Positions 17,000 to 63,270 of a stretch of DNA of 64,000 nt are shown here, in pieces. Below the pieces are notes generated by a model. That model was not told the DNA's origin. It saw only the letters and a list, made by a program, of their open reading frames with translations, and made no database searches. The DNA is from Marsupella aquatica (lineage: Eukaryota; Plantae; Marchantiophyta): NCBI GenBank assembly GCA_973895155.1, contig OZ316892.1, positions 15,912,940 to 15,976,939 on the forward strand, in the 5' to 3' direction. The translations under genes were made by a program, and so were the position numbers. Each line of letters opens with the position of its first letter. Positions within the stretch are counted from its first letter, which is position 1.

Positions 17000-17386
17000 T
17001 CAAGGCGAGGAAAATCGATATAAAACACTCGGGAAACGGAGGTGTATTAAGATTGCCACAATCTCATCCACCATTTTTATCTCAACTTGTGTCTTATACT
17101 CTTCTAAATATTGGGTAACATCTCGCCCATCAAACCTACCTCTATTCGTGAGTACCGCCTGAAGGCATCTTGATGCCCTCATCTCCTGGTTCTCTCTCTC
17201 TCTCTCCACTGTTTCCCTTTCTCTCCTATCACTCTCACTAACCGCATCCTCTCTCTTCATTAGCTGCATGGCAGCCGCCATCATCCTAATCATGTCCTCC
17301 ATAGTCTCCTCTTTTTTGAAAGCCTCAGAAAAACTCTCTATAGTAGGACTAGTGTCTGAATCCATACACAAGCCGATAACCCTCAA
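17000..17386 (-). pseudogene. Gypsy-like gag N-terminal remnant
   Basis: GRFDGRDVTQYLEEY resembles the retrotransposon gag F.G..V..FL motif. Confidence 0.5.
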
Positions 17387-18401
17387 ACTATGGTTTCACT
17401 CTCTCTTCCCTCGAATGTTTGGTCACAACAAATCAGTTGTTATTCATAGTTGATCAGCCTCTTAGCTCCTTGAGCTGCCACTGTCGAACTGCCCCTCTAG
17501 AGATTAAGAAACCTAGCTCACCCTCAATCAATCAATCAATCATTTATTCAATCAATCCTTCATCTTAAGTAACCCTAATTATCTATTCTCATTTCTAAAT
17601 TCCTCGACCCATGGCTGCCCTTCTGCTCGCCTCCCTTAAGCTCTCAACCCTAAACAAACCTATGGCCCTCAATGATCGTTCTCCTTGCTCTTCTCTAACT
17701 CTTGTCTTATCTTCATTTTCCCTTTCTAGCTTTGTCTCACTCAAACCCCTATTCTTCTCACGTTCAACAGTTTCTAATGGCTTTCCCATACACTAATTGC
17801 ATGTCCCTAAAACTAATGATCCGCGAGTTCCCCAATATGGTCGCCACTCTTGTTCGGGGACCGGTTTAGAGCGATGTGAAAACTAGATTTCTTAATATTT
17901 TGGGTATAACCACCGTGCTAGCAAATAGTAAATAGATATTCTCATACGAGCCAATTTTGCCTCGTACAAGCAAAATTTTGTCTCGTACAAGTAAACAAGT
18001 TCCTCGTATGAGCATATCTATTTACTCGTATGAGTTTCTGTTTTCTTGTATGAGTTTCTGTTTTCTTGTATGAGTATATTTTTTTCTTGTATGCATTTCA
18101 GTTTCTTCTCTTCACGGTATGTAGCGTCCATATATGCAATAATTGTGCGGACAATATTATGGTGGGTCCCACCATTGTACAACATCAGAGGAAATTTCTT
18201 GACGATTTCACACAAGGACTCCAATATATTGCCACGAAATATGAAGTCGAAACAAAGTCATACAATACTAGCGCCCGACGCTAGTATTGTATTAGACAAA
18301 AAAACAACACTTTAAGAACTCACACTTCTGCCCGTTAGAAAAGACAAACTACAATTGTAGCTGTTCAACGATAAAGCAACAGTCTATGTTCTCGTTCCCA
18401 A

Positions 18402-21400
18402 CTACCTATCAAGTATGTAACGGACTTCTCCCAACGTTAGAATTGGCTGGCTACATAATGTCGAATCGAGCACATCCAGTTTGAACACATTCTTGAACAC
18501 CCAATACACATGTTTGCAAGGCATGTAAGGCTTCCGATAAGTATGCCGACGGTAGAAATCCTCGCAAGAGCAACATGGGAAACAACATATCTGAACCCAA
18601 TAAGAGGCGACTGATCTCTCATGTTCATGGGTCCGGATACAAAACTGTTTCCCCGACGCATTTCCACTCGTGATCTCTCTCTCCAATGACGCTCATCACT
18701 TCTTTTTCAGAGGCTTCCATTTTCTTCAAATGTGTTTGGGTAAGATGCACTCTTTGCAAGCATTTCTTCCCGTTCCTTGAAGCGCACCTCACAGATGGGT
18801 CAGTTAGGTTGATCCTCTCCGGGAAAAGATTGACATCAATCCATAACGCAGAAGCAACGGTGCTTTGATTTCATCTCCACGGCCTTCGGAGAGAATAAGT
18901 CCTTGTTCTTTCAAAAATTGAGTCTCTGCTCCAGAAAGATTGGTCCCTCTGGCAATTGGGAGATGTGAAGGAACATTGGGAATGTTCAAGACTCCTCTCC
19001 TTGTTGTGCTTTGGTGACAGTGGTTGTTGGGGCAAAACCATATCTGATCGTTATAAGGTTGCCCCCTGAACATTCTGCATCCTCTCACGGAAATTGCAAC
19101 AACACCATCTGGATTCGGAAGGCCAACCTTCTTTACTCGATTTTGACATTCATCACGACTACCTCCCCGTCCAAGTGTTCCGTTACACACTGGACCCGCA
19201 CCCCATTTTGAGGTCCGACGCAACTGCCAGGCACCGGGAGGTACTTCACTTTCCATTGGGGAAACTGAATGACAATATGCAGTCTTGACAGGTCTTGCAG
19301 GCGTCACTGGTGGGACAGAGGATCTTGTTGCTCGACGCGTAGGTGTGTCAATGACCACAACTTCCTCAGAAGCATCGCTTTCTGACAAATTATGGACCGC
19401 ATCAATTCCACCGGCTGAAGGCGTAGAAGGCATTTTCTCAAAATCAGTGGAATGCAGGTTTCTCCTTTTCAAACCTTTTGTATTTGGTGAAGTAACAAGG
19501 ATGGTATCATGCCTATGCGAGTCTTCTGCCGAGACGTTCCCAGTTGCATGTCCTTTTCGTTTCACCGATCGAGTTACAACATCACCATTCAATGGAACGC
19601 TTCTTTCCAAATCAAACTCAACAGCGTTCGACAGGAGGAGATTGGTGGCTTCCTCAAAGAGACGCGGTGACCCCGCCAGGTCCGCCGATCTGAAGGCAAG
19701 CTCAAAAATAGTTGGGCCAGTTCCTCTGCTCAATCCCCTTTTGTATGTAGTATAAGTAGCAATTTGAGCAACCGCTCTATTTTGGTCTGTTTTGCATCCT
19801 TCAAACAGACCAACCTTTTTTTCTGTTGCCATGCTTTCATTCCAGCATGCCTAGATTCCAAACCAGTACAATTAGGAATCATCCCAGCCTCTTCGGCACT
19901 CTTGCTCTAAAACATTGCACGCAAGGGTTTAGTACATGTAAGAAATTGCACACAAAAGTGGCAACACAATGGAAATAACAGTAGCGCCAGACGCTAATAA
20001 ACTGATGATGATATTCCATGTAAAGAACCATTTAACACAGAATAAAGGTAGTCCTTACATCACTCATAGTCCAAACGGATTATTAGCGCTCGGCGCTACT
20101 ATTGCGGATAAGGAACTCTTCTATCTCACACATGCTTCACTAGCGCCGAGCGCTATTAATGGGAACATGCATCCTAGAGCAGTGTATAACTCACCAGTCT
20201 TATGAAGTTCCCCCATTGTCTCCATCGGACAACCCACCAAGACAGCCACCCTTGCAGCATCCAAAGTTTGCTTGAGTGACAATTGCCAGACCTCCACCAG
20301 TCATCGATTTCCCTCGAGATTCGATATGCTTTCAAGAAAGTTGGCGCGTTCCGAAGATGATCCCACATCTCCTTGTGCTCTCCGTGCTTTCCATCTTTTA
20401 CACCTTCTCGGGAATGACGATGAAAAGATTGGAAAAAATGAAAGGCATCTGATCTTTCTCGCTCTGGGTCGGGTACACCGTCAAAGAACACGTTTCGAAC
20501 AACATTCCAACCAGCCAGAGCATTGTCCGCCATGAATCCCCGAATTGTAACATCCTATAAACCATTTTCATCGGCAACCTCTAACATCAAACGCCAGGCT
20601 CTCTCCAGAGATTTTGCATCTTCGGCCTTTAGCTCACAAGTGAATATGGTGCAAAGTGCCCGGTAATGATGATCATATACATGGGCATTGAAAGTAAGCC
20701 AATCTGCCGTGCTTCGATGCATCACGTCAAAACTTACCCATGAACCCTCTAATGACCCACCAGGTTTCATTCTTTGGAGCAGGTCCAGACCACTCCCGTC
20801 ACCTTTTACGGTCATTTTAAAGATATGAGCACTCTCATCCCAACAGCCTTGACCAGGGAGCAAGAACCTATGAAGAAAAGGCAGTCGGATACACTTTTGC
20901 ATCCTCACAAGAAATTCCAGTTCCCCTTTCCCCTTCTGATCTTGACGGACACTCCTTAACACGGATGCAAACTTTTGAGGAGATGTGACGACCATCAGGG
21001 ACTCCCAGATTTCCTTCTCTTCTTCAAGAGAGATTTCTTCAACAGAGGCCTCGCAAAATGTATTCGTCAGTGTCTCAGTCGCAGAGTTTTTAATCCTTAC
21101 TGGGGATGCCATGGGGTTTGCAGTGAATCCCTTCTCCAGATGAGACCTTGCAACCTTTTCTGCCTCCCTCGAAAAGACCCGTCGACTGGGATGATTGTAA
21201 AATCCCATATGAACAGCTAGTCGCGACATGTGGGCCAAAGACTTAACGTCAACTTTCGCAGATGGATAGATGTAGAACATTAGAGCAGGGCAGGCCTCAA
21301 CGCACATCGGAGGTTCGGAGCAATGGTGACAAACAACTCCACCTTCGGAGATCAATTCCCCAACTCGGAATGGGCCCGAAAGTTTTGGGGTTCTTGCCCA

Positions 21401-22195
21401 CATCTCATTATTTCGAAACTTGTTGTCTTTCCACCATGGACAAGCATTATTTTGACACTGCAGCGATCCCGTACACTGGACTTTCCCAAAATCCCACATT
21501 TTCTTCGGAAGAACATTTGAAGACGTTTTCACAATCCGAGTCCAATAATAACAATCCTTACCACGATCCATATCTTTCAAACGTTCACCTTTTGCGTTCA
21601 CACAGTCTACCGGGGGTAACTCAAAAACCACATTCCCATTGTAAGATGTGGGAAGACTAGGCACTACGTGATGAACAAAATCACTCCCCCTTATAAACCG
21701 AGACAATTCACTATGACCTTTGGATTTCAAGATTGTATCCATTGCACTCTGCCGGTACACAGTCAAAGGCACAATCTTTTCTCGATCCGCATTAGACTCC
21801 TTTTTAACCTCGGATGGGTAAACTGGAATCTTCTCTCCGAGAGTAGTTGTTGCTTGCTTATCATCTCCAAAACTTTCCGAGAGTTCGATGACATCGAGTT
21901 CAGCCATTGTGGGAGGATGAGTACAGGAGGCCCCAGAATCTCTCAAAACAAAAACCTCATATTCTTTCTGAGCCTCCAGAGTCCAATATCTTTGACCATG
22001 AACAACATCGTAGAAAACTGGAGTCTCCCCCAAACAAACCGACACTAACAAGATCGCTAAAATAGACTCCTTGGCGACATCAAATCTCACTCCCAAATAT
22101 TCCTCTGAAACACGCTTTGATTCAGATGATTTGAGGACGGGAATTGTGATTATATCCCGAGTGTCCTTCCTCGTGACAACAATATTTTGAGCCAT
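18402..22195 (-). pseudogene. MULE-type DDE transposase with N-terminal GCM/WRKY-like zinc finger and C-terminal SWIM finger; intron 19907-20194
   Basis: CTGSLQC..C, CHHC...C...C...HMGFYNHP; D1 FDVMH, D2 MADNA, DAFH (C/DxxH motif), E in PNCTGLESRHA after the splice; SWIM CSCEDF...PCKH; several frameshifts and stops. Confidence 0.8.
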
Positions 22196-23380
22196 GGCTT
22201 CAAAAGAGGGATATGCATTTGCCCCGCGCGAAATGAAATATGTTTATCATGAGATTCGAGTACGAGAAGTAAACGTTCCATTCTCATTATAGAGTCGTTA
22301 TAGATTTGGATGCACTCCATCAATGATGTTTTGTCATCTTACTAACGGCAGGATTCAGGTTCATAGTTACTAGCACCTGGCGCTACCTCTAAGTGTAAAA
22401 CACTCTTGGGTGAGGACTATGATCGTTCTTCGAGCGGGGACTCATCACCGAGCAGGCAAGGATTTGCGTGGTATGGATCGAGCGACTCGAATGACGACTC
22501 CGATGCGTACAAGCCAAGTTGGTGGGAAGACTGATTTCCCGTTGTCAGAGCGTATCGTTCGAGTGCTGGAGAGACTTGGAGGATCCATCGAGGTTGATAG
22601 GATCTATTTCCACTCATTTTTTTCCGATAGAAAACCCATATCGTTCCTTCCTCGTATGCCAGATTTCTAGTGTACTGCAACATTTTGTATATGAACGGCA
22701 CAGCCGTTTATTTTTACCTCGGTGTCAATGGTTTTGAATTCAGAAGACCAAGCTTTAATTTCCGGTTCTACTCCCGTGTTTGCATTGTATTTCTGAATGC
22801 GAACCTGATCTATTTCTTTGAAATGGCCGTAAACACTCGTTTGCTGTCAATGTTTTTACTAGCGTTCACGGCGCTATTATGAGAAACAAAGTGTCCGTAA
22901 CATTGTCGTGACATGTCTTATCTTTAAAGTGTTTTTGATAGCGTTGGGCGCTATTAATGAAAGGAATCACAAGTCAGACCTGTTCAGAGTTATTTTTACT
23001 TTTACGAGAAATCAAAAAGCATAGAAAATGTTGATTTCTGAATCTTAAATTAGGCCATAATCCTTATTGAAGGAGTGGTGATGGTCAGAAATTCAATTCC
23101 CTTGCACTTTGAAAACTCCTATCTACTCTCTCTCTAGTTTCAATCTTTGTTAATTCTAGTCTTTATTATTGCACCGTGAATCCTAAGGATTACCCACTTG
23201 AGTTTGTGGTTAAACACTTATGTTAAGGAGATCATTAGAAATCTCTCCAACCTAAGAATGTTGGTGTAAACTTCTCAAATCGTGTTAATTAGGTCTTTTT
23301 GATCTTATCCACTCCTAACGGGAACAAAATCGAGTTGTTAAGGAGTAAATAGTCATTTATCTCTTTATCACCTTGTTACA

Positions 23381-26300
23381 TTTGACGGAAATCATCGATT
23401 GTACTCGTGGTCAATCGTCACCAGGGACAATCTGAACAACTTGAAGTATCATCCTCGTGTGATTTGCGTTATTTTCAATGGTGACAGAGGTTCGCTAGTT
23501 GAGCTCGAGACGGCAATGCACACCGTGAACCAGTAAGTTCTATTCGTTAACTGTTGTTACCCCTGTCATTCATTTTGGACCAAACATGCTTTGCGAAAGT
23601 GTTCATTCCCCAATTTTTGCTAGCGCCCGGCGCTACTAATTCCTTTTCATTGCATCCAGGCTTGGACAAGCAGTCGTCGAGCCTTCCTGGATTCTTGACG
23701 CAGACAGAATTTCCCGAATTCTGTCACGTGATCTTGATCACTATAAGCCACTCATCGACAACGCAAACATGGCAAAGTTTGAGGCGATCCGAAAGAAGAC
23801 GAGAAAGGGGTCTTGGTTTACACATAAAATGCCACAGGATGCTCTCATCTACATTCTGTGTGTGGACAAAATCAAGTCTTACTCAAATCAATTTAAGTCT
23901 GATATGGCTTTAGCCAAAGCTCAAGGGGCTTCTTGGTCAGAAGAGGAGACCACAAAGAGGCATGAGGCAATGATGAAGGAGGTGACCAAAGATTGGTCGA
24001 TCAAAGTGACGAAGATCACCCCTTTACTTCATCCGGATTTTGGAGATTATTTGGGAACCTATGCTGAGATGTATCCCGTAACTGAGAAGAACAAACGGGA
24101 GAAGAAGCCAGACACAATTGCACAATGGATCGAGCCAGGTTGTTTACTGCTGTTTCATACCTGGATCCAAAATTGAGGTGCACCCTTCTAGTAGCCCATT
24201 GCACTCCCGAGATTCGGAAACAGTTTTTCCATCCTGCAAGTGTCAACGATGAGCCTGTGAAGCAGTGGTGCCATACATGGCCTACTTGGAATTCTGTGGA
24301 GGGAATTGCAACTGGAATGCTTCACACTTCCTTCAAACAGATTTCTGACCGGATGCCGGCTGACCGTCTCACAAAGTCTGGGTGTGAGTCAATGGAGGCC
24401 ATGCTTAAGATCATTCTCGATGAATTCAGAAACTTTGGGGATCTTGTTAAGGCAAAATTCTTCAACAACTTGTGGCCTTCCAAATATGCGGACAAGGAAG
24501 ATTACACAGCGGAACTGGAAGAGAGCCAAACGATATCTATACCGGTTTTACATGTGGATGGAGCTTAGATCTCCTGACACTCTGTGGGCATACCCGACTG
24601 CATTTCAGAAATGGGTGTCTATTGAAGAGGGAGACGCTCTTGCCGACCTTTATTTGATGTACCCAGCGGAGGGAAAGTTTCCACCACGTTCATTGTCGGA
24701 GTGGGAGAGACTTCACTGTCCGTGGTACCTCGACACAGACAAATGGGATTTACCGTTCGACGAAGCTGAGAAGGATGCCTTCATGAAGTTGCATAAGTCC
24801 CAGATCCCTGCCAACTATGTGTCTGCAATGAAGCAAGGTCTCCAGTCTGATGTTGATGAATCTGCATCTGAGTTATAGAAGAATTGTGAGTCTCTTGTCA
24901 TGCACGTTGACCAAAGCCGTAAGCCAAGAGCAAAGGCGAAGAATGAGTCAGCTGCACCAAGTGACTCCACAAGGTCCTTCAAGAAAAGTGAGTAGTCTAA
25001 GCGCTTTTTGGTTACTTGTTGGCGCTGCTTATGCAGGAGTTTCATTTGGAAATTCCTTTGATTAATAGCGCTTGGCGCTAGTCTGAAAGGTTGGACTCAT
25101 TCAAGTTTCTGTGCCTAACAGGAGGTCAAAAGTCCGACACGGAGGTCCCGGCTGCCGAAGGGAAGAATGATGCAACTCCTCAGGCATCGGAGGCAAACAC
25201 TGGAGCTCAAGAAACCCCGGATCAAGGGACCCCGGATGGTGCTGGCAAATCCATTGTCCCTGTTGACGCAACTAGCACGAAGAAAAAGAAAAAGAGAGGC
25301 GCCGGTGAGGACAGAGCAGCATCATCTACTCGAGACGTTATTTCCTGTGGACTCCAGAGAGATGTCGGGAATTTTAAGCGAAGGTGTTCTAGACACTGTT
25401 TTGTGGAGTCCAATTTAAACGAATTTTACGATTTGGTATTTAACAAGGGGATGAAGCCCATGTGGGTTACTAAAGTTGAGGCCTGGGGAAAGGAATTGGT
25501 AAAGTCAGGAGACAGAGAGAAGGGAGTAATGCGTGGCGGAAAAGAGAGGGGCTTTGGTGTGGATGCTGGTTTCATCTACATTCCCACTGGATTAAAACCA
25601 ACACTTCTTGATCGGAAGGTTCCCAATGGAACCTTCAGGATTACACTATTCCCAGCTCTCTCTTCCGAGCCATGGAGCCGTTCCTTGCAGACGATGGCCT
25701 ACTTGCAATTTTACACAGAGGAGACTATGATCAGGTATCTGAAGTGATTGCGGCTTGCCAGGATTCTAAGTGTTTCCAGTGTATTTCAACCCACGATGTG
25801 GTCATGACTACACCAATGTATAGGCCCCGATCTGATACTCAGGTAACAATTCCTCTTGCACATACTAGCGCTCGATGCTACTATCAGCATTCGCTATATC
25901 TACAATTCACTTATCTTTCGTAAGGATGAAGGGTTGACTAGCGCCAAGCGCTAATATATGTGTCTGTTTTCTTATACTGCCTTCATTGGGAAACTGTGTT
26001 GCAGATATTCACACTTACTCTTAATATATTTTGCCGCATTTTGACAAAGGGAAGGGTCCCGAAAGACCCCAAGTTCCAGCCACTATCAAATGAAGAAGAC
26101 CCTTCCGTCACTAACATTATTGGGTTTTCGTTGCCGCGACATGACCCGACTCCTGAGCTCCAATTTGCAGGAAATTCACGCTTGCCTGTGGGTTTCATGC
26201 AAACTATTTTGGAATTGGTGACTCTTCCTGGAGATATCGTTATGGACTGGACAGTGGGTTCCGGTAGTACGTTTGTGGCTGGAGATTATTCTGGTCGCTT

Positions 26301-27021
26301 TGTTGTTGGGCTGGAAAATTGGCCAGAGGTTGTTGTTACTTCCGGTAAGGTCTTCCTCGATCTTTTACAGAACAAAGAAGTGGTTGCACCAACTCCTCCT
26401 AAGAAGATTCCTGGAAGTAAGAAGCAGGACAGGCTCCGTGCTATTCTAAATTTTGATTCGGAAGACGAGGATGAGGGTGGCAATGCTTCTCAGCAATCTA
26501 AAGATGATGAGGTGTCGAAGAATGTGGTGGACCTTGGATCTGGAGATGAGGACAGTGAAGAGTCAGAAGAGTAATTTTCTTTAGCTTCTTTCTCTCATTG
26601 TATACTTTTTTCCAAAGAACTCCTCTACTCCCTTTTGTCTAGAAAATTCGCCCGATTTCCCGACTTCGACTAAAGAACTCCAGTTCAAATTCTCAGGTCA
26701 GAGTGGAATCTTTGGAGGCGTTTTCAACTTCGAAGGAACGTCTCTAGGAACGTTGTACAGACCCCGGAGAAGCCATTTGTTCTCCCCTCTTATGCTGAAA
26801 AGGCGGCACGACGGGCAGATTCAGTCAGGACGCTTACTTGGGAGAGTAAGGGTCTTAGACTCAGGAGAGGCTCAGATAGAAAGTTTGTGCAGAATCACTT
26901 TGTAGATGATATTGCAAAATCCAAGTATGTGGACGACGAAGCAGAGTCCACTGATAGATCAGAAAGTAGCGGTTTTGAATCGGGCTCAGAGTCGAGTGGT
27001 GGTTGTGGATCTGGTCTTTAG
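23381..27021 (+). pseudogene. Spliced ParB/Srx-like plus beta-class N4C/N6A DNA methyltransferase-like gene; exons ~23381-23532, 23660-24987, 25122-25842, 26005-26570, 26697-27021; 5' end not found
   Basis: FDGNHRLYSW; motif-IV-like VDAGFIYIPTG; PFLADDGLLAI; motif X/I QTILELVTLPGDIVMDWTVGSGSTFVAGDYSGRFVVGLE; GT-AG introns, three of which were checked and are in phase; last two exons conserved in copy 2; frameshifts inside exons 2 and 3. Confidence 0.7.
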
Positions 27022-27667
27022 TTTTCCTTGTTTTATTTACCCGTTTATGGAGAACGACGACACTCAATAAGAACGCCGTGACGTGTCGGATTAGAGTAGC
27101 GCCCGACGCTATTATTGTAGCCGGTAGTTCAAAGAGGTTTTTATTTGGTTGTTTTCCTTATAGCGCCCGACGCTAGTATAAATGTACTCAATGGCCGCTT
27201 CACGTCCAATATATGTGACAATATTTTCATACCCTTCAGTGTCTTTTTTTGGGTGCACATTTGCTGGTATGAGTTTTGTTGTTTACTGTTTGTTGTTTGC
27301 TGTCACGGAGAGATCCCCCAATATTTTAGGGACTTGCTTGTTTTTGTTTTAGTTCCACTTTTTCTTTTTCTTAATATGTTTCAATCCGTATTAAGAGACT
27401 CTACTTAATACTAATTCGCATTTACCATTTGACCTTTTCTTTCAAACTTAACAACATTAACCTATTCATTAGCTTTGATTCATAATCAGTTGGTAAAAAG
27501 AATGCTTTCTCAAATAATAATTGATTCAACAAGTTAGTTTAGCTTTCTCTATGATATCAACATTTATCTACTATTTTTCAGCTTCTCATTTGTCTTTCGT
27601 TTGTAAACTTCTTTATGTAACTTGTTCCTATTCATAAAGTCATACACTACTCTCAAGTTTTCTTATT

Positions 27668-28138
27668 CAGCTTTTTACTATCCTGTCCCCCAAACTAGCC
27701 TAATTTCATAACCTGCCCCCCAAACAAATTAAATTGCTAAGTTGCCCCCCATTCCGTAGATCCATTGAGGCATACCCAGTACATGGTCCCTGGTGCCACA
27801 TGGCAAGTTCCCACTGGTCCGGGCTAAGCCCTGCCCCTCTACCCCTTCCCCATTGAGGCACTCCCATCGCCAGCCCGAATAGAGCCATCCCGCTCCTGTC
27901 GCCAGCCCGAACAAAGCCCTCCCGCAAATGACACATTTTTGGCCCCTCGCCTGTACTTGTGAGAACCCTGCCCATGCTTAGCCCGGACCAGTGGAAACTT
28001 GCCATGTGGCACCAGGGACCATGTACTGGGTATGCCTAAACAAATCTACGGAATGGGGGGCAACTTAGCAATTTAATTTGTTTGGGGGCACAAGTTATGA
28101 AATTTGGCTAGTTTGGGGGACAGGACAGTAAAAAGCTG
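27668..28138. mobile_element. Mutator-type MITE, 471 bp, ~160-bp TIRs, 10-bp TSD
   Basis: CAGCTTTTTACTATCCTGTCCCCCAAACTAGCC... mirrored by ...GGCTAGTTTGGGGGACAGGACAGTAAAAAGCTG; TTTTCTTATT on both flanks (27658-27667, 28139-28148). Confidence 0.93.
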
Positions 28139-34496: not shown

Positions 34497-35831
34497 CTTG
34501 TCCCTTTAACCCTTTCTCAGGACCTTGTCATATTATTTTTTCCATTTTTTAAATGTAACAGACTGTACAACTATCTAAGTCGGTCCACCACATGTACTAT
34601 CTAAAAGCAATTCAATGTAATGTTGTTTGAAAATAAGTATATAGCTTATGTACTAAGTATTTAGCCTTTCTCACTCCTATATTCATTTGTTTCATTTTTG
34701 GAAATACTTCTGCAGGGAAAGTAGTACTTAAGGTACCTTAATTTTACTCTCTTTAGTTATGAATTAGTCATACCTGAAAGTATTTCTCCAAAGCATAGTC
34801 TTACCTAAACTTTAGGAAGGTGAACCAATGGTTGTGGGTGCTATCCGGGTGCTATTTGGGTGTTATGTTTTAAAAGTTGCTTTTTGCAAATAAATCAGGT
34901 AGGACTAAAACAATTGTTTGATGTAGAGACATGAATTGCCATATGATTTTGATAGTTAATTTTGTGGTTGTTGCACCAACATTGAGCTCAAAATTATAAG
35001 GTCTGCTTTAACATTTGTTACTATGTGCATCCTATATGCTCATTTTTATGAATTCAATCAATGCCCTGTGTACTAAGCTAAAGAATAAAAATTGTTGTTT
35101 AAGTGGCATTGTGTAAATTGCCTGAAATACTCTACCTAGGTGCTCACATCTCAAAAAGAAATTCACAAATGACACCAAGGAAATACTCCCTTCTAAAGTG
35201 AAAATTTCCAAAAATGTTTTTGAAAAAATAGTATCAAAGAATTGTAAGTACTACAATTTATTTGCAAAAAAACAACTTCTTAAAAATAGCACCCAAATAG
35301 CACCCGGATAGCACCCAAAACCATTGGTTCACCTTCCTAGAGTTCAGATAAGACTATACTTTGGAGAAATACTTTCAGATATGAGTAATTCCAAAAAATT
35401 GAGAGAAAATAACTAAGAGAGCAAAAATTACCTACCTTAAGTACTGAAACTGATGCCCACATAGATCCCTAGGTTTGTGAAAATGCTCCCATATATTTTT
35501 GCAACTCAGTCTATTCACAATGTGATAGGGAATATTCTCAATTAGTCCATCCCAATTGTATGGTTTGTGTCTAGGGTCCATGGGAGCACCATTTTTTCTT
35601 AAGTACTACTTTTTTTGCAAAGGTATTTCAAAACATGAAAGAAATGAATATGGGAGTGAGAAGGGCTAGATACTTTGTACATAAATTATATACGTATTTT
35701 CAAACAAGAGTTCGCTCAATTACTTCTAGACAGTACATCTGGCAGACTGACGTAAATAGTTGGACAATATGTTACAATTAAAAAATGGCAAAATAATATG
35801 ACAGGTCCTGAGAAAGGGTTAGAGGGACAAG
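34497..35831. mobile_element. Foldback/MITE-like element with ~400-bp degenerate TIRs; right arm interrupted by an ~165-bp insert
   Basis: CTTGTCCCTTTAACCCTTTCTCAGGACCT mirrored by AGGTCCTGAGAAAGGGTTAGAGGGACAAG; 34823-34895 mirrors 35256-35330; CTTAAGTACT duplicated around 35446-35598. Confidence 0.8.
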
Positions 35832-39990: not shown

Positions 39991-42697
39991 ATGGGATCCC
40001 CGGCGGATCTGGCCTTAGGATGCCGAGCAGAGTCGCCTATCGCAACAACGGGGAACCTATTCAAGGTTGTCCCATCGAGCAGGGACAAGGTAGATCGAGA
40101 TCGAGCTCAAATGTTGGACGAGTACCTGAAGGCGCTAGAAGATGAGAGGCGCAAAATTGAAGCGTTTAAGCGGGAGCTACCCCACTGCATGCAGCTTCTT
40201 GACTACGGTTAGTGTTACAGTAACTACAAACTCTGCGTCAAGCATCAGATGATGTCATTTGGATCAGGCGTGCAAACCACGTCTAATGTTATCAATAAGT
40301 CCCTTGTTTCTTCTGCCACTCTATTAATTCTTACAGAGTCTTGCCTGCCACAGACGTTTCTCCTGCATTCAATTGACGTGAACTTTCGTGAGAAGTAAAC
40401 ATTGGAAATTGTTGTTCTTGATGGTGGAATCATATCATATTAACGCTTCTTTCGTGGAACATTGACAGCCATCGACGCCTCAAAAGAGAATTTGGTCCAG
40501 TCTCCTTCTTGTTCCCCAGCACCTCCTCTCGTATCCCTCATCGGAAAAACTACCAAAACTTTGGGCTTATTTGGGAAGGAGGTAGTGCAAGAGTTTCTCA
40601 AGAGCAGGTGGGAGACCACAAGGAAGGACGACATCGAAGCAGAAGAACAGGAAAAACCGAGAAGGTCTAGCGGGAGCGCCGCCGGTGATAAGCCGACGTG
40701 GATGGCCGAAGCCCAATTATGGACCCAACCCTCCTTGAGATCTGATCATTGGAAAGAGGTAATAGCTTATCGTATACATGTTTTGCCCAATATGTTACCT
40801 GAGGAATTTTTCCTTGGTCTAGATGGAAAGATGATATTTAGACGTCCTACCATAACAGACACTTAGCATCATTGGTTTGTTGGTTTATTTAGTCTTCATT
40901 GGTTGTTGTTGAGAGCTAGCCTAATGTTTTCTGATATACTGCAGAAAGAGTCATCAACAGAGGATTCGGTGAGACCGAAAAAGGATTCCGAGAAAAGCAC
41001 GCTGACAAGCCCTGCCCATCTCTTCAGTAATAAGCAAAGGCCCGGCGGTGCCTTTATACCTTTCGTCAAAGAGAAACCAGCGCCAGGTCCCGTCATCAGA
41101 GCAAAGCCTGGGGTTCCCGATTTCATGCTCTCATCTGGGGAGAGTCGACCCACTACCGCTCTCGGTTTTGGTGCGGTTGACTCTGAGGTTGGAAGCGTTG
41201 AAATCAGTCCTAAAACAACGGATATCAATACACCCATATCTTACGGGAAAGAAACAAGGGAAAGAGTAAATGGAGTAGGAAGTACTTATTCTGGAGGTAC
41301 AGGAAGTACCACAACAGGTGCTGGCAACGCTCAAAGAAAAGCACGCCGATGTTGGTCTCCAGAGCTTCATCGCCGCTTTGTCAGTGCTTTGCAACAGCTT
41401 GGGGGTTCCCAAGGTAGTTGTTTGTTGCTTCCTCTAATTCTACATTCTGTCTTCCCAAATCTGATCGTTTCTGTTTTTGTTCGTCTTGAAAGCGATTTGT
41501 TTCCTTGTGTTTGTGCCCGTCATTATTTTGAATTAGTATTAGTATGATAGAGGATAAAATCACACTCAACATATGCTGGGCTGGGATGAACAGTTGCCAC
41601 TCCGAAGCAGATACGAGAGCTCATGAAGGTAGATGGGCTCACCAATGATGAAGTCAAGAGTCATCTTCAGGTAATCAGAATCATCTTTTCACACAAAATA
41701 TTTTTAATCAGCTTTCAGACCTCTTAGCTTAAACGAAGTGGACCTCTTCACCCTTGTCGGGGCAGTCTCTGCCCATAGCTAGAAGGCTCCACACTTCGGC
41801 TTGTTCTCGTCGAGCAAGCCTACGAGCTTTCCTTGTTTTGTCATCTTGTGCTTTTCAAGCCTTTCCTTGGAAGTTGTGTGCCTTTCCGGGCTTCACAATA
41901 TGAGGACTCCCATATGTTTAGGATGATATGTAATTGTTGACCTGAGAGAGAAGGGTCGCTTTCGCAGTGCAGAATTTGGGCTGGGGGTGTGCAGCGAAAG
42001 AAGTTGCCATAGCTGCTTTCTCCTCGTTTCATTCTACCGCTAAATTTTCAGCATAGTTTGGGGGCCTTCTCTTTCACACATTCAGCATGTTTAACTGCAT
42101 GCCAGTCGTGTCAGGGTGACGATTTGACAACGGAGACTGTTTGTGCAGAAATATCGACTACATACACGGAGGCCCAGTCCTACACCGCAAGGTCCTCAAC
42201 AAAATCCGCCACAGTTGGTTGTGTTAGGTGGTATTTGGGTCCCTCCCGAGTACCAGAACGCAGGAATGTATCATGATCCTTCCAGTTCTGTCCAACAAGA
42301 ACCCGTCTTCTGCCAACCCACGATATCTCAAGAGTTCTACTCCCAGTTGCACCCTTCTGTCCAAATGGAGCTGCATCGGTCTCCATCCCAGAACTCTCCG
42401 CAAGGCCCTTTACAGTCAACTAGTAATCTGTCCAGTGGTGCACACCAAACAAGTGGTGAAGGTTACAGAGAAGATAGTGCGGGAGAGGATGGAAAATCAG
42501 AGAGTTCTAGTTGGAAGGGAGAAGAAAACTTGCGAGAGAGTGCAGACAAAGACACTTCAGGGAAGAGAAATGGCAGTAGTAGCAGCAGCCAGGACGAAGA
42601 TGAGGCTGATGATGGGAGGGATGGTCAGGTCAGGCTTCAGCTTGAAATGTCATGTTCTAGTGTACATAATGTAAAGACTGAGCCGTCATTCGCGTGA
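39991..42697 (+). CDS. HHO: NIGT1/HRS1/HHO-family GARP (G2-like) Myb transcription factor; exons 39991-40207, 40469-40758, 40945-41413, 41594-41670, 42149-42697
   Basis: N-terminal coiled coil [22 protein letters not shown]; [57 protein letters not shown]; [12 protein letters not shown]; in-phase GT-AG introns; no stops. Confidence 0.96.
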
Positions 42698-44606
42698 AGG
42701 GAGTTACACGGTAGATAACAGAGAGTGGTTGACGTTTTAAATTTTGCTCGGGAAAGTCTACAGGACTGCTCAAGTTGAGTCAAGGTTTGTATCGTTTACA
42801 TAGATTATCGTTCCCTTGGTCTAGAACAGATTAACCATGTCGAGAACCTCAAGTTACATTCAATATCCTTCTAGAAATACTGCTCATTGACAAGATAATT
42901 CTATCTCGTTGGCGTCATGAGGCTGGGTGACTGGGATTTGAGACTTCCGAATGTGATTTCTGGGTGTACTCTTCTTTGTCCTACGGGGAATATGTACACG
43001 GAGGGTTGCTGATCTTCTGCAGCATGACAGTTCTGCAATGACCATCATTTATAGACAATCAATGATGTACAATTTTATTTCCACGCCTCCCTGCCCTTCG
43101 GATGTTTGGCTTGGTGTACAGGCTTTTGGTAAGGAAAAGAAGAGTTGATCAGGGAGAAAAGAATTCGTTGCAGCTAGTATAGGGTTTAGTTTGGAACTCT
43201 ACCCTCAAAATTCACGGCTGTTGTCGTCCCAAGCGGAGTTTTATTATTCTGGAATCGTTATTTTCCAAAATTAGATTGGCATATCATATGGTTGCTCCCA
43301 AAAGAAGGCCAAAGGGATTGCACAAATTACTTGTGCAGTATGAAAGACTATAATACACTTTGCGCATTTTTTTTGCCGTGGTCCTCATTTAAAATAACAG
43401 GGCAGTTATTTTTTTGCCGGGGTCCTCATTTGAAACAATAGGGCAGTCTTGGGTGAGAAAATTTCAAACTGGGAAAAACAGAACCATTAAGACCAAAAAA
43501 ATGGAATTGAAATGATGACAAGAGGGATGCACTGTGGTGCGGTGTCCGTTTCCCAAGGCTTGAAGGTTGTTGGATCCTCACTTCGGTCGACATTGTTTGG
43601 GGCATATGGATGTGGCTTGTTGCACATGAGGGACACTTTGTTGGCTTGAAGAATGTAAAAAAGACACCAAAATAATCTCATTTTTAGTGTGTATTGTGCA
43701 GATGGCAAGGTTATATTGTCTCCTTTTGGTGCCCCACTGCAGCCTCTATGCAACAAGCTTACAAGGCAAGACAATATTTGAAAGAATTTTTGCAACAACA
43801 TAAGTGGCAATGTAAGGCAATGCTAGTCCCAATCTTTCTTATTCTTGGTGAGGCATATTTTCCGCAGGTTTGTACCATCCGCTCAGCTAGACCATCCGCT
43901 TGCCCTTGAAGTTCTACAATGATCAATGAGGGCATGGTCAAGTAAGTCGTGAAATTCTCCTATGAATTCAGAACCCTGGTCAGTGAGGCACTCTGCACAA
44001 ACCCAAAACCTGCTACGCACTTGTTGGAGAAAGGCTTGGCTAGTGCACTATGAACTCTTATTAGGCAAGGCAACCAATTCAATCCACTTAGACAAGTGCT
44101 CAATTGTGATCATTATATAGAGGTTACCTCTGGATGTCAAAGGAATTCTGCAGCTAAATCACAAGGCCATCGATAAAAAAATCCTTGAACATGGGAGTGG
44201 ATGACGTATGGGTGGTCAAGAAGAGAATGAGGTTCTCACTATCACGCTATTCACACCTAGCTATGATATCCCAAATCTGAACATGCATCCTCTTCCAATG
44301 TTAATGAGGAGCCATCAAACTATAAGTAGGCTTGATTCCAAAATGCCCAAGTTTGGAATGTACTTTTCTGACCAATTCAGCCCTATCAGCAATCGGTGGG
44401 GCCACTCTCTCCCCTTGTGGCAAACAATGGACTAGGTGATCTCCGTTCCACATGTAGCACTTAGTTATTGTATCCGGTCCCTTTGAGCAGTGGTCATGCC
44501 TGGAGGGTACTGCCTGTGCTGCAAGAAATTCAGAGTGTCCAGGTCTTCCCAAATGTCCACAATTGGTTGGTCAACAAGGCTACGACAAAGCAAGGCAAGA
44601 TAAACA

Positions 44607-45969
44607 AAGTCAAAGTCAAATTCTAAGCTCCACGACGACCCAATGAGTCAAGGGAGCTGTGGCAAAAAAGCGCCAAATACAAAGCAAAGAAATGAGTCAA
44701 ATGCTCATGTGAGGATCTCTACATCCTCACTAATAACAAACTAAGGACCCTAAGAGTCACTAATGTGTAATGCTATCACATCGTTTCCTATTCACTGCCA
44801 TGATATACAATCCAAGTTGCTTTGGTGGCAACCTATATAGATCATGCAGATCAGAAACAAGGATTTGATGTGCTACTCAAACCTCCTCATACCGTCTACA
44901 TGCTATGAATACATGATATTCATTCTCAATGCTACCACTATCACAAAGTCTATACACCCTATCCTGCCTCCTAATTCCCTTCCATCTACCCTCCTCTACC
45001 TCCAAGTGATGTGAGCTGAGTCTATATCTAGCAATCACTTGTCTCAACCTCATAGACATGGGAGCTCTAAGATACTCTTGCCTTTCATACAACATCATGG
45101 GGTTTACATCCCTCATAAAATACTGTAATCTAGGGCTAGGATCACTCCAAAGTTTTCTAATAGCTTTATCACGCAAGAGTGACCAAAGCTTCTTTGGTTG
45201 AGTATGCCATTCATGCTCAGACAAGTCCCATGATTGGGCCCAGCTACATACATCAGCATACCAACCAAAAGCTCTAGATATGTGAAAGGCTTGGGTAGGT
45301 AGCCTAGAATCATTCAACGCCTCCATTCTCCTAGCATATTGAAGAGTGTGATAGAGAGCTTCGACCTCCAATGGTAAAAGACCTGCCTCAACCAATAACA
45401 AGGGGTATGGGGTTTGGTTTTTCACTCCAAGCTCCATCTCCAAGAAAAGCTTTTGGATGACCTCTACCTTTTTCCAACAAGATTGAGAAGTAGAAGGGCC
45501 CCATACTTGCACCCCATAAAGAATAACAGGCCTTACCAAGGAATTGAAGAGTTGTTTCTTCAACTTCCAAGTGGAAAGGCTTGCTCCCTTGCACTTCTAA
45601 ACCATGCTATAGAAGGCCTTGTAACCATGAGCCACCCTATGCGTCACACATGTAGCCCAACTCATGTTTCGGAAAAACTCCACCATCTCCACCTTTTCAC
45701 CTGCAAAATAGAGAGAAAGCTCTTGCTTTGTACCAAGTACAAGGCACTTGGTCTTCTTCATGTTGACCTGCATGTCTGATTGTTTGCAAAAATGCTCTAG
45801 GGCTAGAAGATGTTGTTGCAAATCAGATTGGGAGTGAGCTAGAAGCACCACATTCATCTGCAAATATAAGAAGTTGGATGGCCACTGTTCCCAACTGAGA
45901 ACCAACGCCTCCCATCTCCTTTAGCAAATCATGTAGCTGGTCAATGAAGATCCCAAAGAGCGTTGGAGA
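44607..45969 (-). mobile_element. 5'-truncated RTE/RTEX-like LINE inserted in the gypsy pol
   Basis: SPTLFGIFID, LIFAD, RLSSHHLEVEEGRW, C-terminal zinc-finger-like region; (TTTGAC)n tail at 44607-44620. Confidence 0.9.
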
Positions 45970-47699
45970 GGCCCCAAGTGTAGAGCTAGCACTAGCATGA
46001 TCAAAATCTTGCCGTGCATCTGAAAAATCTGTAGAAGTGATCAAAGAACTGCGAGACATGGTGTCAGCATTCTGGTGCATCATTCCAGGTCTATGAATAA
46101 CTTCAAACTCATATTCTTGTAGAATTAGGGGCCAATGAGCTAATTTGCTGGTAAACGTATCATTGGTCATCAACCACCTGAGTGGTTGGTGATTGGTAAA
46201 GAGCATGAACTTAGTGCCATACAAGTAGGGCCTGAAATGTATGACAGCCCACACAACAGCCAAGCATTTGCCTTCATAAGAGTAGTTAGCCTCGTTATTA
46301 CTCCTACACGCATAAGCAATGACTACTCCAGCCTATCCCCATCAGATTGACCCCAGAATGGCACGACCTAGAGCACTCAAATCCATGTGCAAAATGAATG
46401 TTTTGCTGAAACCAGGCCTTCTGAGAACAGGGTGACTTGATAACTTTTCCTTCAAAGTCTCAAATGCCACCTGGGTGTCTTCAGTCCATTTCCAGGTAAT
46501 CGCCTTTTTAAGCAAAACGTACAATGGGTGAGCAATGATGCTAAAGTACTGGATGTAAATTTTGTAGTAATTACATAGACCAATGAAGCTTCTCAAAGTG
46601 TGAGTATCAGTAGGCTTGGGCATCTCAAGAATAGACACCACTTTAGCCCAATGAGCCATAGTGCCATCTGGAATGATTCGACGCCCAAGGTAAACCACTG
46701 AGGTAACAGCAAACTCACACTTGGGATGGATCTTCATATTAACATTTCTCAGCTTCCCGAATAGCTCCTCAAGATGTAATAAGTGTTGCTCAAAACCCTT
46801 GCTATGAATTAACGCATCACCACTGTAGCATTCAAGAAATCAACACTTTCTAGTACTTGATCCATCACCCAGTGTAAGAAGACTGGTGCATTCTTCAGTC
46901 CACATGGCATCACCAGCCATTCCCACATTCGATTGCTCCCATGAAAAGTTTTCATTTTACGGTCCTCAGCCCGAATAATGATCTGGTTGAAGTCTTGTCA
47001 CAAGTCTACAAGGGTAAAGATGTCAGAATCTTCAATGGAGTCAAAGATCTCTTCAATGATAGGCATGGGGTACCTGTCTTGAGGTGTGACCAGATTGAGT
47101 GGCCTATAGTCCCCGCACATCCTCTTCTCTATCCATAGCCCACTAGAATCTTTGTTGGCATCACTATAGCTACTGCAAAGTCAAATTGGAGGGCTGGATC
47201 AGACCTGCTTCATAAAGCTCTTTGCATTTCTCATCCACTAGCTGTCACTCATGCTTGCTCAACCAGTGTCTCCACCTATAAATAGGTCGCTCATTGGTCA
47301 GCTCAATGGAGAATTGCATCACCTTACAAATGCCCAAGTCTCTCATTGAGAAAGCAAACACATCCTCCTAGCTCAACAGCAAATTCAGTACCTGATCCCG
47401 TTGCTTCTTACTCAACTGATTACGCATCACAAATTGGAAACTTGCAATGCATGGCGTAGAGCTAGTGGGTGTACTAGAAGAACCTGATGTGCTTGCCTCT
47501 TTGCCAGGTGTGATCTGGTCCATGCCATGCTCTGATTTTGAAATTTCAGTCACATTACAGGCCAGGGTACCTCTCCCCCCCCCCGAACACTAGGAGTGAG
47601 ACGTAGAGTGGAGAGGATGGGATTTGTACTTCATCAGGGTGCCAGGTAAGAACTTCATTAAGGCTAGAGGCCGGGTCACCCATAGTAGGAACAAGATGC

Positions 47700-50330: not shown

Positions 50331-50670
50331 GAGGTGTTTACAAAAGACAGCAAACAGAAAACATGATTTAATAACAGAAACTGGTAACAGGAAAAAAAAT
50401 TGATAACAGGAAAATGGGTGGAAATTTCTTTTTGAAATTATTTTTTTGAGAAAAAAAAAGTTGTTTTTTTTTGTCGACCAGTTTTTTTTGCTAGCGCCCA
50501 AAGCTAGCCAAAAATGTTGCATTGTTAATTTTTTTGGAAATAACATGTTTTAGGAGATATTTTTAAATTGTCATTTTTCCCGGTAACAGTGATTTTTTCC
50601 TGGTAATAGCATATTAAAAACAGGAAAAAAAATTCCTGTTTACCTGTTTCCTGTCTCCGTCGCTATACCC
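50331..50670. mobile_element. Non-autonomous mini-derivative of the MULE-like family (340 bp)
   Basis: 8-bp direct repeat CACCGGAT on both flanks (50323-50330, 50671-50678); its ends match the two different ends of copy 2 (56279 and 50731); one palindrome-like motif at 50492. Confidence 0.8.
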
Positions 50671-51379
50671 CACCGGATCAAGATACACTGGTGTATCAAT
50701 TGTGCGAGAGATACCTATGGTAGCTAGAGCGGGTATAGCCACTGAGACAGGAAACAGGAAAACAGGAATTCTAGTACCAGAAAAACAGATGTTGTTATCA
50801 AGAATATGTTTCCGATACCAGGAAAAACTGGTCTTTGCAGCAGGATTATTACTTCATTACTTCTAACCAAAATTAGCAATATTCACTGTGCTTCATTTAT
50901 ATTCTAGAGCTTAGAACCAACTAACATGCCAACAATTGTTGTCTGATGATATCAATGTGAGTATGGAATCATCAACAACTTGTTGAATATATGTCCCAAA
51001 AATTCCAAACACACAAACATTTACCCTTGAATGCCAAAGGAAAAAACATCAATATGGTAGGTCCCACCCTAATTCACTTCATATTATATGCACACAAGAA
51101 GACCAAAAACCAGGAATGAAAACCAAGGACAATATCAAAGACCACAAACGGAGGACTAGCGCCTGGCGCTAGCTAAAATAAAAACAAGCAACACACCCCA
51201 AAAATGACAATTCATGAATGGACAATGTTGGAAACCAAACTTTAAAAAAATCATTTCAAGTGGATATACCATGAAGTAAATCACAATAAGGAAGACTTTC
51301 ATCCCAGCGCCAAGCGCTAACATAGAACTATACCATTGTAATACGACAAAAAAACAATATAATCGTTTTGAGTATAGGA

Positions 51380-54360: not shown

Positions 54361-54470
54361 TACATCACTTCTTTATTGTTTGTGCCCGACGCTACTTTGG
54401 TGTTTGTTGTAGTCCTCGAGACATTGCCCATCGATTGATAATTTTACAATTTGGATTGCGATGCGTGCAG

Positions 54471-55375
54471 GTATTTACCCTCAGGCTTGACATATTTTGC
54501 CGGATTTCAAGGGAAAAGGTACCAAAAGAATCCAAGGTTTAAGCCTTTATCAATAACCAAAGATCCTTCGATCTCTAACTTGATTGGGCTTCCAACTTTG
54601 AAGACAGATCATTGCAGTCGATTATAGAGCTTTTTACTCTCCCCAAAGATATTGTCCTTGACTGGACTGTAGGTTCAGGAAGCACATTCATTGCTGGGGA
54701 TTTTTCTGGTCGTTTTGTGATTGGGTTGGAAAATAGGCGTGATTTTGTTGAGTCTGCATCAAGGGTTTTCTTAGAACTTCTTGATCCCAAACATGTTCCG
54801 ATACTGCCTCCTCCCCCGACCCATATAAGTGGTTGCAAAAAGAAAGATAGGCTCTCATCTGTTCTGAACTTTGATTCCGATGAAGAGGAAGATACTCCTG
54901 GAGATGTTGGAGGTGGCATAGAGAAAACCCAGGAGGAAGAATCTTTGGAGAAGAGCAAAGACTCGACGAGTAAATTTTGTCCAGTAAGCTTCTTTATCCT
55001 TTTGAGAGTTGTTTACAATTCTGGGTTCTTATTCTCTCTTCCCAAATACTTATTTTTTTCCAGTTTACTGGATCAGGTCAGAATGGAATCTGAGGAAGTG
55101 TTTCCAACTCCGGAGGAGACTAGCTAGGAATGTAATTGTCACTCCTGAAAAACCGTTTGTTTTGCCCTCATACTCCAAAAATGTCGTGAGGAGGGTTGAC
55201 AAAATTAGAACACTTTGTTGGGAAACAAAAGGTCTTTGTCTTCAGAGGGGAGCAGACAGGAAGTTCATGAGGAACCCTTATATAGATGATCTCAAAGAAA
55301 GTACATTGATGACGAGGCCGAGTCCACAGACAGATCTGAAAGCTCTGGATCTGAAACATCGGATAGTTTATAAGT
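54471..55375 (+). pseudogene. Methyltransferase-like gene, copy 2 (last two exons)
   Basis: SIIELFTLPKDIVLDWTVGSGSTFIAGDFSGRFVIGLENR; final exon SEWNL...TPEKPFVLPSY...RGADRKF homologous to 26697-27021. Confidence 0.8.
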
Positions 55376-60911: not shown

Positions 60912-60923
60912 GGTCCCAATCCA

Positions 60924-61617
60924 TCATTTAGAAACAACTCTCTTCTTATTGGTAACAATAGCTTGTCCATTGCGCAAGTAGGCTACCAATCCTTGGTCTT
61001 TGGCTACCCTCACCTTCTCAAGCTCAATTTTCCTTGCTTGGACTTGTGTGGGAGTCAGATCATCATCCAACCAAATCCTTAGCCCTTTAAGCATGCTCCT
61101 GTTAGCCATCACTCTAGCTTTCTCGGATTCAGCTGCAAACTTCACCAAGATTGGACGTGGAAGGTCCCCCTTCTTTTGCCCAATCCTATATGCTTGCAAA
61201 ATGATAGGGTCATGCACTTTCATCTGAGATTGGAAGAATGAAATTGCTACCTTCTTGGTGTCTTCCTTCTCCTCCTCAACAAGGCCTGATATTTTGCAGT
61301 TGCTGACTCTTGCATGCTGGTTCTTGTGTTCTTCTTCTAGTGCTCTCCTCTCCTCCTCCTTGGCTTGGACAAATTCCATATGTGATTGTTTTGTAGCCTG
61401 TGCAAAGGTTTTGAGCTTCTCCTCAATCTCCCCTACAGCCTCATGTATCACTGATTTCTCTGGGACATACTCTTCTCCATGTCTCCAAAACACGATGCAA
61501 GCAATGAGAGTTGCTTACCATTCTCCTGAGTTTGAGATCGAAGATCACTAATCAACCTCTTTTGCTTGACATTCTCATTCTTTAGCTCCGTCACCTCCTT
61601 GCTGAGCGTGGTAATCT
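60924..61617 (-). pseudogene. LINE ORF1 remnant
   Basis: 189-aa ORF 60924-61493 immediately upstream of ORF2; matches 1-209. Confidence 0.8.
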
Positions 61618-63220: not shown

Positions 63221-63270
63221 AGGATGTTCTCACAAGTACTTAATCACCTTAATGGAACAACAAATTTCAA

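Follow-up and report, generated by a model that had tools for sequence, protein, structure and literature searches.

We analyzed a 64,000-nucleotide window of the genome of the liverwort Marsupella aquatica (contig OZ316892.1, positions 15,912,940 to 15,976,939, forward strand), which hosts a Mutator-type DNA transposon of 9,418 bp (element 1, 17902 to 27319). Element 1 carries a transposase gene on the minus strand and, divergently transcribed on the plus strand, a cargo gene of which five exons and about 1,030 codons are left, separated by GT-AG introns of 126 to 162 bp. The cargo combines a plausible ParB-like half domain with a beta-class amino-methyltransferase fold, predicted to have lost catalysis. 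A 15-base palindrome is dispersed through the non-coding DNA of the element. Our main reading, to which we assign a probability of about 0.5, is that the cargo protein would bind these palindromes and keep the element unsilenced.

A Mutator-type element with two divergent genes

17894 to 17901: left target-site duplication AATATTTT (8 bp), from the sequence and the joint of 17893 to 27320
17941 to 18074: seven subterminal CTYGTAYRAG repeats, likely candidates for transposase-binding sites
18402 to 19850, minus strand: transposase exon 2, with the E of CWNESM, a low-complexity linker and a SWIM-type CxC..CxH
19851 to 20194, minus strand: transposase intron, GT-AG, phase 0, holding palindromes at 19982, 20084 and 20141
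20195 to 22195, minus strand: transposase exon 1, with the ATG at 22195, a Cys/His-rich region, catalytic D codons at 20728 and 20527, and DAFH
22196 to 23002: region between the divergent genes, with the promoter, possibly unmapped 5' exons of the cargo, and palindromes at 22371 and 22939
about 23003 to 23380: foreign repeat fragment resembling a long terminal repeat (LTR) and ending in TGTTACA, marked by a rise in read depth and by loose ends at 23003 and 23381
23381 to 23532, plus strand: cargo exon with FDGNHR, read in the sequence
23660 to 24987, plus strand: cargo exon encoding about 440 amino acids of unknown fold, with frameshifts at 24118 and 24507 and a TAG at 24876 to 24878
25122 to 25842, plus strand: cargo exon with a charged linker, basic over one stretch and followed by the N-terminal half of the methyltransferase fold; frameshift at 25626
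26005 to 26570, plus strand: cargo exon for that half of the beta-class methyltransferase fold which contains motif X/I (DWTVGSG at 26245; the acidic residue of G[LM]E) and an acidic tail
26697 to 27021, plus strand: predicted last cargo exon, 107 amino acids, basic then acidic, with KYVDDEAE; its splicing is a prediction
27320 to 27327: right target-site duplication AATATTTT, from the sequence and read contigs

The limits of element 1 follow from the occurrence of AATATTTT at both flanks and from the joint of 17893 to 27320, which is present in contigs of two of the four public sequencing runs (X1 and X5) and in which the 8 letters fit either side. The right end is therefore at 27319, 52 bases short of the 27371 given in the original prediction made from the sequence alone. 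We considered whether the empty-site joint could be an insertion polymorphism and rejected this, because the target is itself a repeat. It is likely the LTR of a Gypsy-type element, with a gag-like open reading frame (ORF) at 17000 to 17395, and the empty site probably comes from other copies of that LTR.

The transposase of element 1 is broken by a premature TAG at 20555 to 20557 and by frameshifts near 18805 and 18700. We found 13 relatives, two of which come from Calypogeia fissa, and the open-frame ones lose homology at the same junction between FIRL and V (as seen in the four displayed in full, out of seven). The E of CWNESM is likely the third catalytic residue. We take DAFH, lying after the second D, to be the C/D(2)H motif, and CxC..CxH to be a SWIM finger; Pfam gave no match for the SWIM region. 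The model of the open-frame relative P0078 has a mean predicted local distance difference test (pLDDT) of 58.5, and all four of its Foldseek matches at E <= 0.001 are to ISCth4, of the IS256/Mutator type, the closest at E 7e-5. A wide fold search with the transposase model put mostly helical matches on top, with ISCth4 at rank 19 (Z 6.6). Residues 16 to 101 of P0078, which correspond to window positions 21900 to 22195, are predicted to form a ubiquitin-like (beta-grasp) N-terminal domain (Z 8.7).

The termini of element 1 are degenerate, with 22 of 40 bases matching between the two ends, and long terminal inverted repeats (TIRs), one criterion for a Mutator-like element (MULE), are absent from it. 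Target duplications of 8 bp flank element 1 and a 340-bp derivative described below, none was found at the second element of the window, and the length is otherwise that of MULEs, which have duplications of 8 to 11 bp and include a non-TIR subgroup according to PMC6446971. The ISCth4 fold match, DAFH, the SWIM-type tail and the 8-bp duplication together make element 1 a MULE of the non-TIR type. The Mutator-type layout of the original prediction, with a minus-strand transposase and a divergent plus-strand gene, is thus borne out by the spliced DDE transposase and the GT-AG introns of the cargo, as is the SWIM tail by the CxC..CxH read in the sequence. Its GCM/WRKY label had no such match in Pfam and corresponds to a cysteine pattern, in a region where the structure model is unreliable.

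The cargo gene and its ParB-like part

In element 1 the foreign repeat at about 23003 to 23380 replaces the 5' part of the ParB-like exon. In run X5, other letters precede position 23381, and they are open and in frame with FDGNHR. The remaining exon (23381 to 23532) begins with FDGNHR at 23381 and continues with a helix, then a strand, then a second helix that ends in N. We take DGxHR followed by helix, strand, helix and N to be the ParB/sulfiredoxin (Srx) pattern, and it is plausible that this exon encodes the C-terminal half of a ParB/Srx-like domain. Look-alikes from the ESM Atlas language-model search provide a lead towards ParB identity, short of proof: DUF6551 (0.91), ParB_N (0.89, with 32% of members) and DUF3723 (0.89), with eight of the ten best named matches in one family or clan. 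The ParB/Srx claim of the original prediction therefore keeps its motif and its look-alikes and gains no profile match, since searches of profiles and phages with the remnant returned nothing below E 3.

Most of the read depth in runs X1 and X2 shows neither the three frameshifts of the cargo nor its stop at 24876. The open-frame relative P0075 shares 46 to 50% identity across all three pieces of the 440-amino-acid exon and is open over two of the breaks. Intact copies of the cargo therefore probably exist. For the 440-amino-acid middle region the ESM Atlas search gave scores of only 0.82, which we consider a non-result. The cargo pieces present in element 1, which has lost the 5' part, gave no match to SET or 2-oxoglutarate (2OG) oxygenase domains.

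The last cargo exon shares 56% identity over 86 amino acids with that of the second element. Its KYVDDEAE sits in the acidic tail and is conserved there at the DNA level, and it resembles short acidic motifs of chromatin factors.

A methyltransferase fold with a degenerate motif IV

The exon at 26005 to 26570 exceeds the PF01555 gathering score of 26.7 bits both in element 1 (28.4) and in the second element (29.9), and its top eight matches in the PDB are all beta-class methyltransferases. The model of the liverwort relative P0011 (predicted template modelling score 0.64) matches CcrM over residues 34 to 258 (Z 16.1, root-mean-square deviation 4.1, 209 residues aligned), and also MboIIA (Z 16.0) and the rotifer N4CMT (Z 14.4). 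Judged from these models, the C-terminal part of the cargo is a beta-class amino-methyltransferase fold with the motif IV strand before motifs X and I, as originally predicted.

A full HMMER profile scan with the methyltransferase exon retrieved 74 proteins; a word-indexed search with the same exon missed the family among longer proteins, a shortfall in sensitivity when compared to the HMMER scan. In a quick tree of 73 out of 76 rows, 45 rows group with both window copies, apart from the bacterial-type matches (support 97 in the approximate likelihood ratio test SH-aLRT). This tree left out two short family-like fragments and one unrelated match, two of its rows are mislabelled, and its regions were delimited by the profile of the family itself. 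The cargo family thus counts about 45 clusters, with named members in Calypogeia fissa and Riccia sorocarpa; of 30 proteins checked for an organism name, five are labelled Calypogeia fissa and one Riccia sorocarpa. No family member was found in scans of viral contigs or prokaryote genomes. A metagenome scan returned two loci, and L001, the one examined, is a phage-like methylase with DPPF.

Six sequences show the motif IV site, and they read YIPT (window, 25577 to 25588), FLPN, FLPN, CLPN, ALPT and DPPT. When compared to [DNS]PP[YFW], the D, N or S is missing in five of the six and the aromatic fourth residue in all six, so that the motif is complete in none. The register was set by aligning P0045 with PF01555, where it aligns from model position 2, and with a bacterial-type profile; it rests on P0045 and on the fold match because in the profile-profile comparison no more than the C-terminal half of the methyltransferase could be aligned. 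P0045 (Riccia sorocarpa R1sor_010341) is the long-branch member with DPPT, and among the sequences at hand it is the strongest candidate for having retained some activity or the ancestral state. The motif I that binds S-adenosylmethionine (SAM) is kept, as DWTVGSG and GLE in the window, with GxG and G[LM]E conserved in the family alignments and the SAM-site residues D77 and D81 present in at least 90% of the rows of alignment A2.

We then looked at variation among the copies in the four runs, considering the top 40 of 132 variant rows. At the motif IV codons these rows show synonymous changes and I>L, while a single loose end among the reads has YLST at this site. Over the motif IV exon, 26 of the 39 classified variants are synonymous, against 27% expected (one variant beside the frameshift was omitted), and the frameshift at 25626 is absent from most copies. 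The degenerate motif IV has thus been maintained rather than decayed. In beta-class enzymes, such a loss of motif IV likely means no amino-methylase activity. Since motif IV is degenerate across the family while the SAM motif is kept, the cargo is unlikely to write N4-methylcytosine (4mC) or N6-methyladenine (6mA), and we predict that its methyltransferase domain is catalytically dead. The original prediction had already doubted catalysis on seeing YIPT in place of DPPY/SPPY, and the family bears out this doubt; the same evidence undercuts its idea of a vehicle for 4mC/6mA writers. Overall, of the checks that it named, Pfam/HMMER and Foldseek recovered the methyltransferase fold and motif IV was inspected, and the ParB part gave no profile match.

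It is nonetheless conceivable that the cargo is an active 4mC/6mA writer with an unusual active site, or with a DPP-bearing partner of the P0045 type, and that it methylates the palindrome or nearby bases. The beta-class fold is complete, the SAM-site residues (D77, D81, GxG, G[LM]E) are conserved, the DPPT of P0045 aligns with the profile, and liverworts do use 4mC (10.1101/2021.02.12.428880). Against this, motif IV starts with Y, F, F, C or A in five of the six sequences, and the aromatic residue is always missing. No change to D, N or S occurs among the copy variants considered, and the host enzyme MpDN4MT1, as described in the same preprint, has TSPPY. We regard an active writer as improbable.

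A palindrome dispersed through non-coding DNA

within 18269 to 27175: twelve TAGCGC-YNR-GCGCTA palindromes, at 18269, 19982, 20084, 20141, 22371, 22939, 23621, 25066, 25866, 25939, 27097 and 27161

The 15-base dyad TAGCGC-YNR-GCGCTA, which had not been spotted in the earlier reading of this DNA, has 17 matches at no more than one mismatch, against 0 in 100 shuffles. When up to two arm mismatches are allowed there are 19, of which 12 lie in element 1, 6 in family 2 (the family of the second element) and 1 in the other 49,237 bp, so that the dyad is nearly missing from the rest of the window, host gene included. None of the twelve sites of element 1 falls in the mapped exons, although these cover 72% of the element (P-value 2e-7). 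The dyad is present in four of the five mapped introns, and at least 7 of the 12 sites are intronic. Most other copies have a G at 22375, which makes the palindrome at 22371 perfect, and a loose end in run X4 represents a further palindrome-bearing variant.

The transposase introns of the two families align nowhere except at the dyad. The subterminal repeats do differ, since the CTYGTAYRAG repeats of element 1 are unlike the ACAGGAAA repeats that family 2 has at its ends. This difference suggests a binder other than the transposase that recognizes the ends. In addition, the spacer is Y-N-R in all 18 element sites, a symmetry that fits a double-stranded dyad, as a one-base hairpin loop cannot form. 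From this analysis we infer a pattern such as a dimeric, element-encoded DNA-binding protein would leave, and the cargo is the predicted binder.

The same sites could act as RNA hairpins in introns and untranslated regions, in splicing or small-RNA processing, with the cargo as an RNA-binding pseudo-methylase like METTL14/Kar4. The intronic position of so many sites, the overlap of several right arms with branch-point-like CTAAT words, and the service of inactive beta-class domains in RNA complexes (PMC4738411) agree with this possibility. The Y-N-R symmetry does not, most arm mismatches break the pairing instead of forming wobbles, and the distance to the splice site varies from 7 to about 130 bases, all of which make an RNA role very improbable.

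The KorB operator TTTAGCCGCTAAA (PMC2680271) has TAGC..GCTA in common with the dyad, and we treat this as a curiosity.

Family 2, selection and linkage

50331 to 50670, minus strand: non-autonomous family 2 derivative of 340 bp, flanked by an 8-bp duplication of its own (CACCGGAT) and bearing one degenerate palindrome, at 50492
50731 to 56279: element 2, a diverged family member with an internal deletion; palindromes at 51157, 51305, 52184, 55484 and 55583; piece of a long interspersed nuclear element (LINE) at 52760 to 53303

The transposase of element 2 is broken and shares about 50% protein identity with that of element 1. A tblastn comparison showed that the internal deletion joins the 5' end of the transposase to the cargo just before the third intron. 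What element 2 keeps of the cargo is thus the last two exons and a few codons upstream, without the ParB-like exon, the middle or motif IV. The original prediction had seen here the same two-gene layout; the conserved intron position and last exon agree with this, whereas the deletion means that element 2 is not a full two-gene copy. The 340-bp derivative begins like element 1 (GGGTATA). It lies back to back with element 2 (50331 to 50827), their 5' ends 60 bp apart within a 97-nucleotide inverted repeat, possibly through local transposition.

Between the two elements, the proportion of nonsynonymous differences (pN) is 0.29 in both cargo exons and 0.35 to 0.36 in the transposase, and that of synonymous differences (pS) is 0.72 to 0.84, near saturation (0.84 for the last cargo exon). 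The cargo is under purifying selection like the transposase, and the low pN over near-saturated pS indicates that it has long travelled with the transposase under equal or stronger constraint. The frameshifts, stop and insertion in the cargo of element 1 could alternatively mean that a host or bacterial gene was captured by chance, as in Pack-MULEs, and is in decay. Most other copies are free of those breaks, about 45 related clusters exist, and the constraint over saturated synonymous divergence largely refutes such a capture, which we find hardly credible. The gene is therefore a family trait, as originally proposed.

The linkage between cargo and transposase is seen in this window alone and hinted at by the sequencing runs. 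In particular, run X2 has near-identical contigs in both genes at depths of 278 to 377, compared to 14 for the junction contig. These depths, which are no copy number, are a mere hint that both genes were amplified jointly.

Proposed mechanism

In our main reading, the cargo protein would be a ParB-like pseudo-methylase that binds the TAGCGC-YNR-GCGCTA dyads in non-coding DNA as a dimer. Bacterial ParB loads at parS and spreads. The ParB-like domain may likewise load at the dyads and spread as a clamp over the element of about 9 kb, and SAM would be held as a structural or regulatory ligand, not as a methyl donor for DNA. The outcome would be a local loss or exclusion of 5-methylcytosine (5mC), as with VANC on VANDAL elements, and the transposase would use the separate subterminal repeats. 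The original prediction had suggested VANC-like self-marking or anti-silencing; the dyad lends this independent support, and binding and anti-silencing themselves we still infer. More tentatively, and with less confidence than in the mechanism itself, liverwort Mutator elements may have rebuilt a parS/ParB-style self-recognition from prokaryotic parts, a ParB clamp and a SAM-binding pseudo-methylase, convergent with VANC and of an age that would let leafy and complex thalloid liverworts share it.

The methylation history of the window fits this proposal. CpG dinucleotides across codon boundaries of both genes of element 1 number 82 out of 124 expected (0.66). Elsewhere in the window, the corresponding ratio is 0.11 in LINE ORFs, 0.21 in Gypsy ORFs, 0.38 in element 2 and 0.89 in the host gene. 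The CpG retention of element 1 in this one window fits long-term low methylation. The host gene, at 40444 to 42697, is CpG-rich, and from its motif we take it to be of the GARP/Myb type.

Several observations weigh against the reading that we prefer. CpG retention is unspecific, because high CpG ratios (0.63 to 0.81) also occur in the non-coding DNA that flanks the host LTR and because silencing through trimethylation of histone H3 lysine 27 (H3K27me3), by which many Marchantia Mutator elements are repressed (10.1101/2022.10.24.513474), would also spare CpG. The dyad was defined post hoc, and two of its 12 sites lie in the region where the 5' exons of the cargo are unmapped. The ParB remnant of 53 to 61 amino acids has no match in Pfam, PHROGs, NCBIfam or the PDB, P0045 keeps the DPP of motif IV, and the five Calypogeia proteins, three cargo and two transposase, come from five different contigs.

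Two further points on the same side favour a specific alternative, in which the transposase or some host factor recognizes the dyad, with the cargo as a MURB-like transposition helper that works through protein contacts, for instance in targeting or stabilizing the transposase complex. No DNA-reading domain was identified in the 440-amino-acid middle of the cargo or elsewhere in it, and the AtMu1 transposase alone activates its cognate copies (10.64898/2026.08.24.746577). Moreover, second ORFs of MULEs include integration helpers such as mudrB (PMC6446971). On the other hand, the terminal repeats diverged between the families and the dyad did not, the rest of the window nearly lacks it, and both recognizable cargo domains belong to families of DNA-acting proteins. 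We hold this alternative to be rather unlikely.

Other repeats in the window

Beyond element 1, positions 27668 to 28138 hold an element resembling a miniature inverted-repeat transposable element, with long inverted arms (113 nucleotides, 96% complementary) and a 10-bp flanking duplication TTTTCTTATT, by whose length it is of the Mutator type. Long inverted arms, of about 236 and 218 nucleotides, also mark a second element at 34497 to 35831, which is heavily depleted in CpG (0.16). The LINE at 58071 to 61514 has an open frame of 950 amino acids, similar to an endonuclease/reverse transcriptase, and an upstream ORF, with 2 CpG out of 54 expected; related pieces occur at 44605 to 45970 and inside element 2. 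A 181-bp tandem repeat is found at both window ends (351 to 1122 and 63265 to 64000), in opposite orientations.

Comparison with known systems

We found no account of this liverwort family in open-access PMC and bioRxiv; Repbase and the supplements of the Bostrychia preprint and of PMC4738411 may hold such elements. The closest parallel in behaviour is the VANDAL/VANC system as described in PMC5735166, where a Mutator-type element has a gene that encodes no transposase and a short motif that clusters in introns and in intergenic and terminal non-coding DNA, and where VANC21 binds such a motif in the introns and elsewhere in the non-coding DNA of VANDAL21. The VANC motifs are described there as non-palindromic words of 8 to 9 bases that form tandem arrays and differ between families, whereas the liverwort dyad has 15 bases, is dispersed singly and is common to families about 50% identical in their transposase. 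The cargo, with its methyltransferase fold and ParB-like motif, has no family match in common with VANC, judged by Pfam on the cargo pieces alone. The liverwort element would be a second, independent candidate in land plants, with a defined site, recognizable folds and a hypothesis of ParB spreading, in a lineage with a genetic model (Marchantia).

Similar parts have been described in red algae (10.1101/2025.02.11.637652), where Plavaka and Chondrus Mutator elements carry a gene with PF01555 and SET and one with ParB and 2OG, beside inverted-repeat arrays. Transposon-borne ParB and PF01555 accessory genes are thus already on record. Like the cargo with its putative ParB-like part, the Plavaka genes PAG2 and PAG3 bring PF01555 methylase and ParB-like domains to DNA transposons, with inverted repeats as proposed self-binding sites. 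In that account they are part of a set of three genes, with the domains in separate ones, mainly alongside an EnSpm/Plavaka transposase and with tandem arrays beside one gene. The liverwort cargo, compared by description, has the methylase and the putative ParB-like domain in one spliced gene, a degenerate motif IV and a land-plant host, and may bridge the red-algal accessory genes to land plants.

The cargo shares with CcrM, M.MboIIA, M1.HpyAVI and M.PvuII the fold, the order of motif IV before X/I and the kept SAM motif, and with the ParB-methylase fusions of phage ParB-terminase loci, as given in PMC4738411, the N-terminal place of its putative ParB-like domain. It differs from these bacterial and phage methylases in lacking [DNS]PP[YFW], in its introns, in the 440-amino-acid unknown domain between the two parts and in forming its own branch (SH-aLRT 97). 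Among eukaryotes, MpDN4MT1 and the bdelloid N4CMT are likewise beta-type amino-methyltransferase folds of bacterial origin (10.1101/2021.02.12.428880; PMC8885841). Both are active host enzymes, and the TSPPY of MpDN4MT1, a contrast drawn from its description, is absent from the cargo. Should the cargo domain prove active after all, the transposon would be carrying a 4mC/6mA writer whose active site is non-canonical.

Disrupted amino-methyltransferase domains have been retained in DIRS1, there within a transposon, and in METTL14/Kar4 (PMC4738411). The methyltransferase group described in that source is another one (PCIF1-derived), DIRS1 has its domain in a retroelement polyprotein, and neither a ParB part nor a dyad is mentioned. 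With its predicted pseudo-methylase, its ParB-like part and its dispersed dyad, the liverwort element offers a test case for the role of dead amino-methylase domains in transposons.

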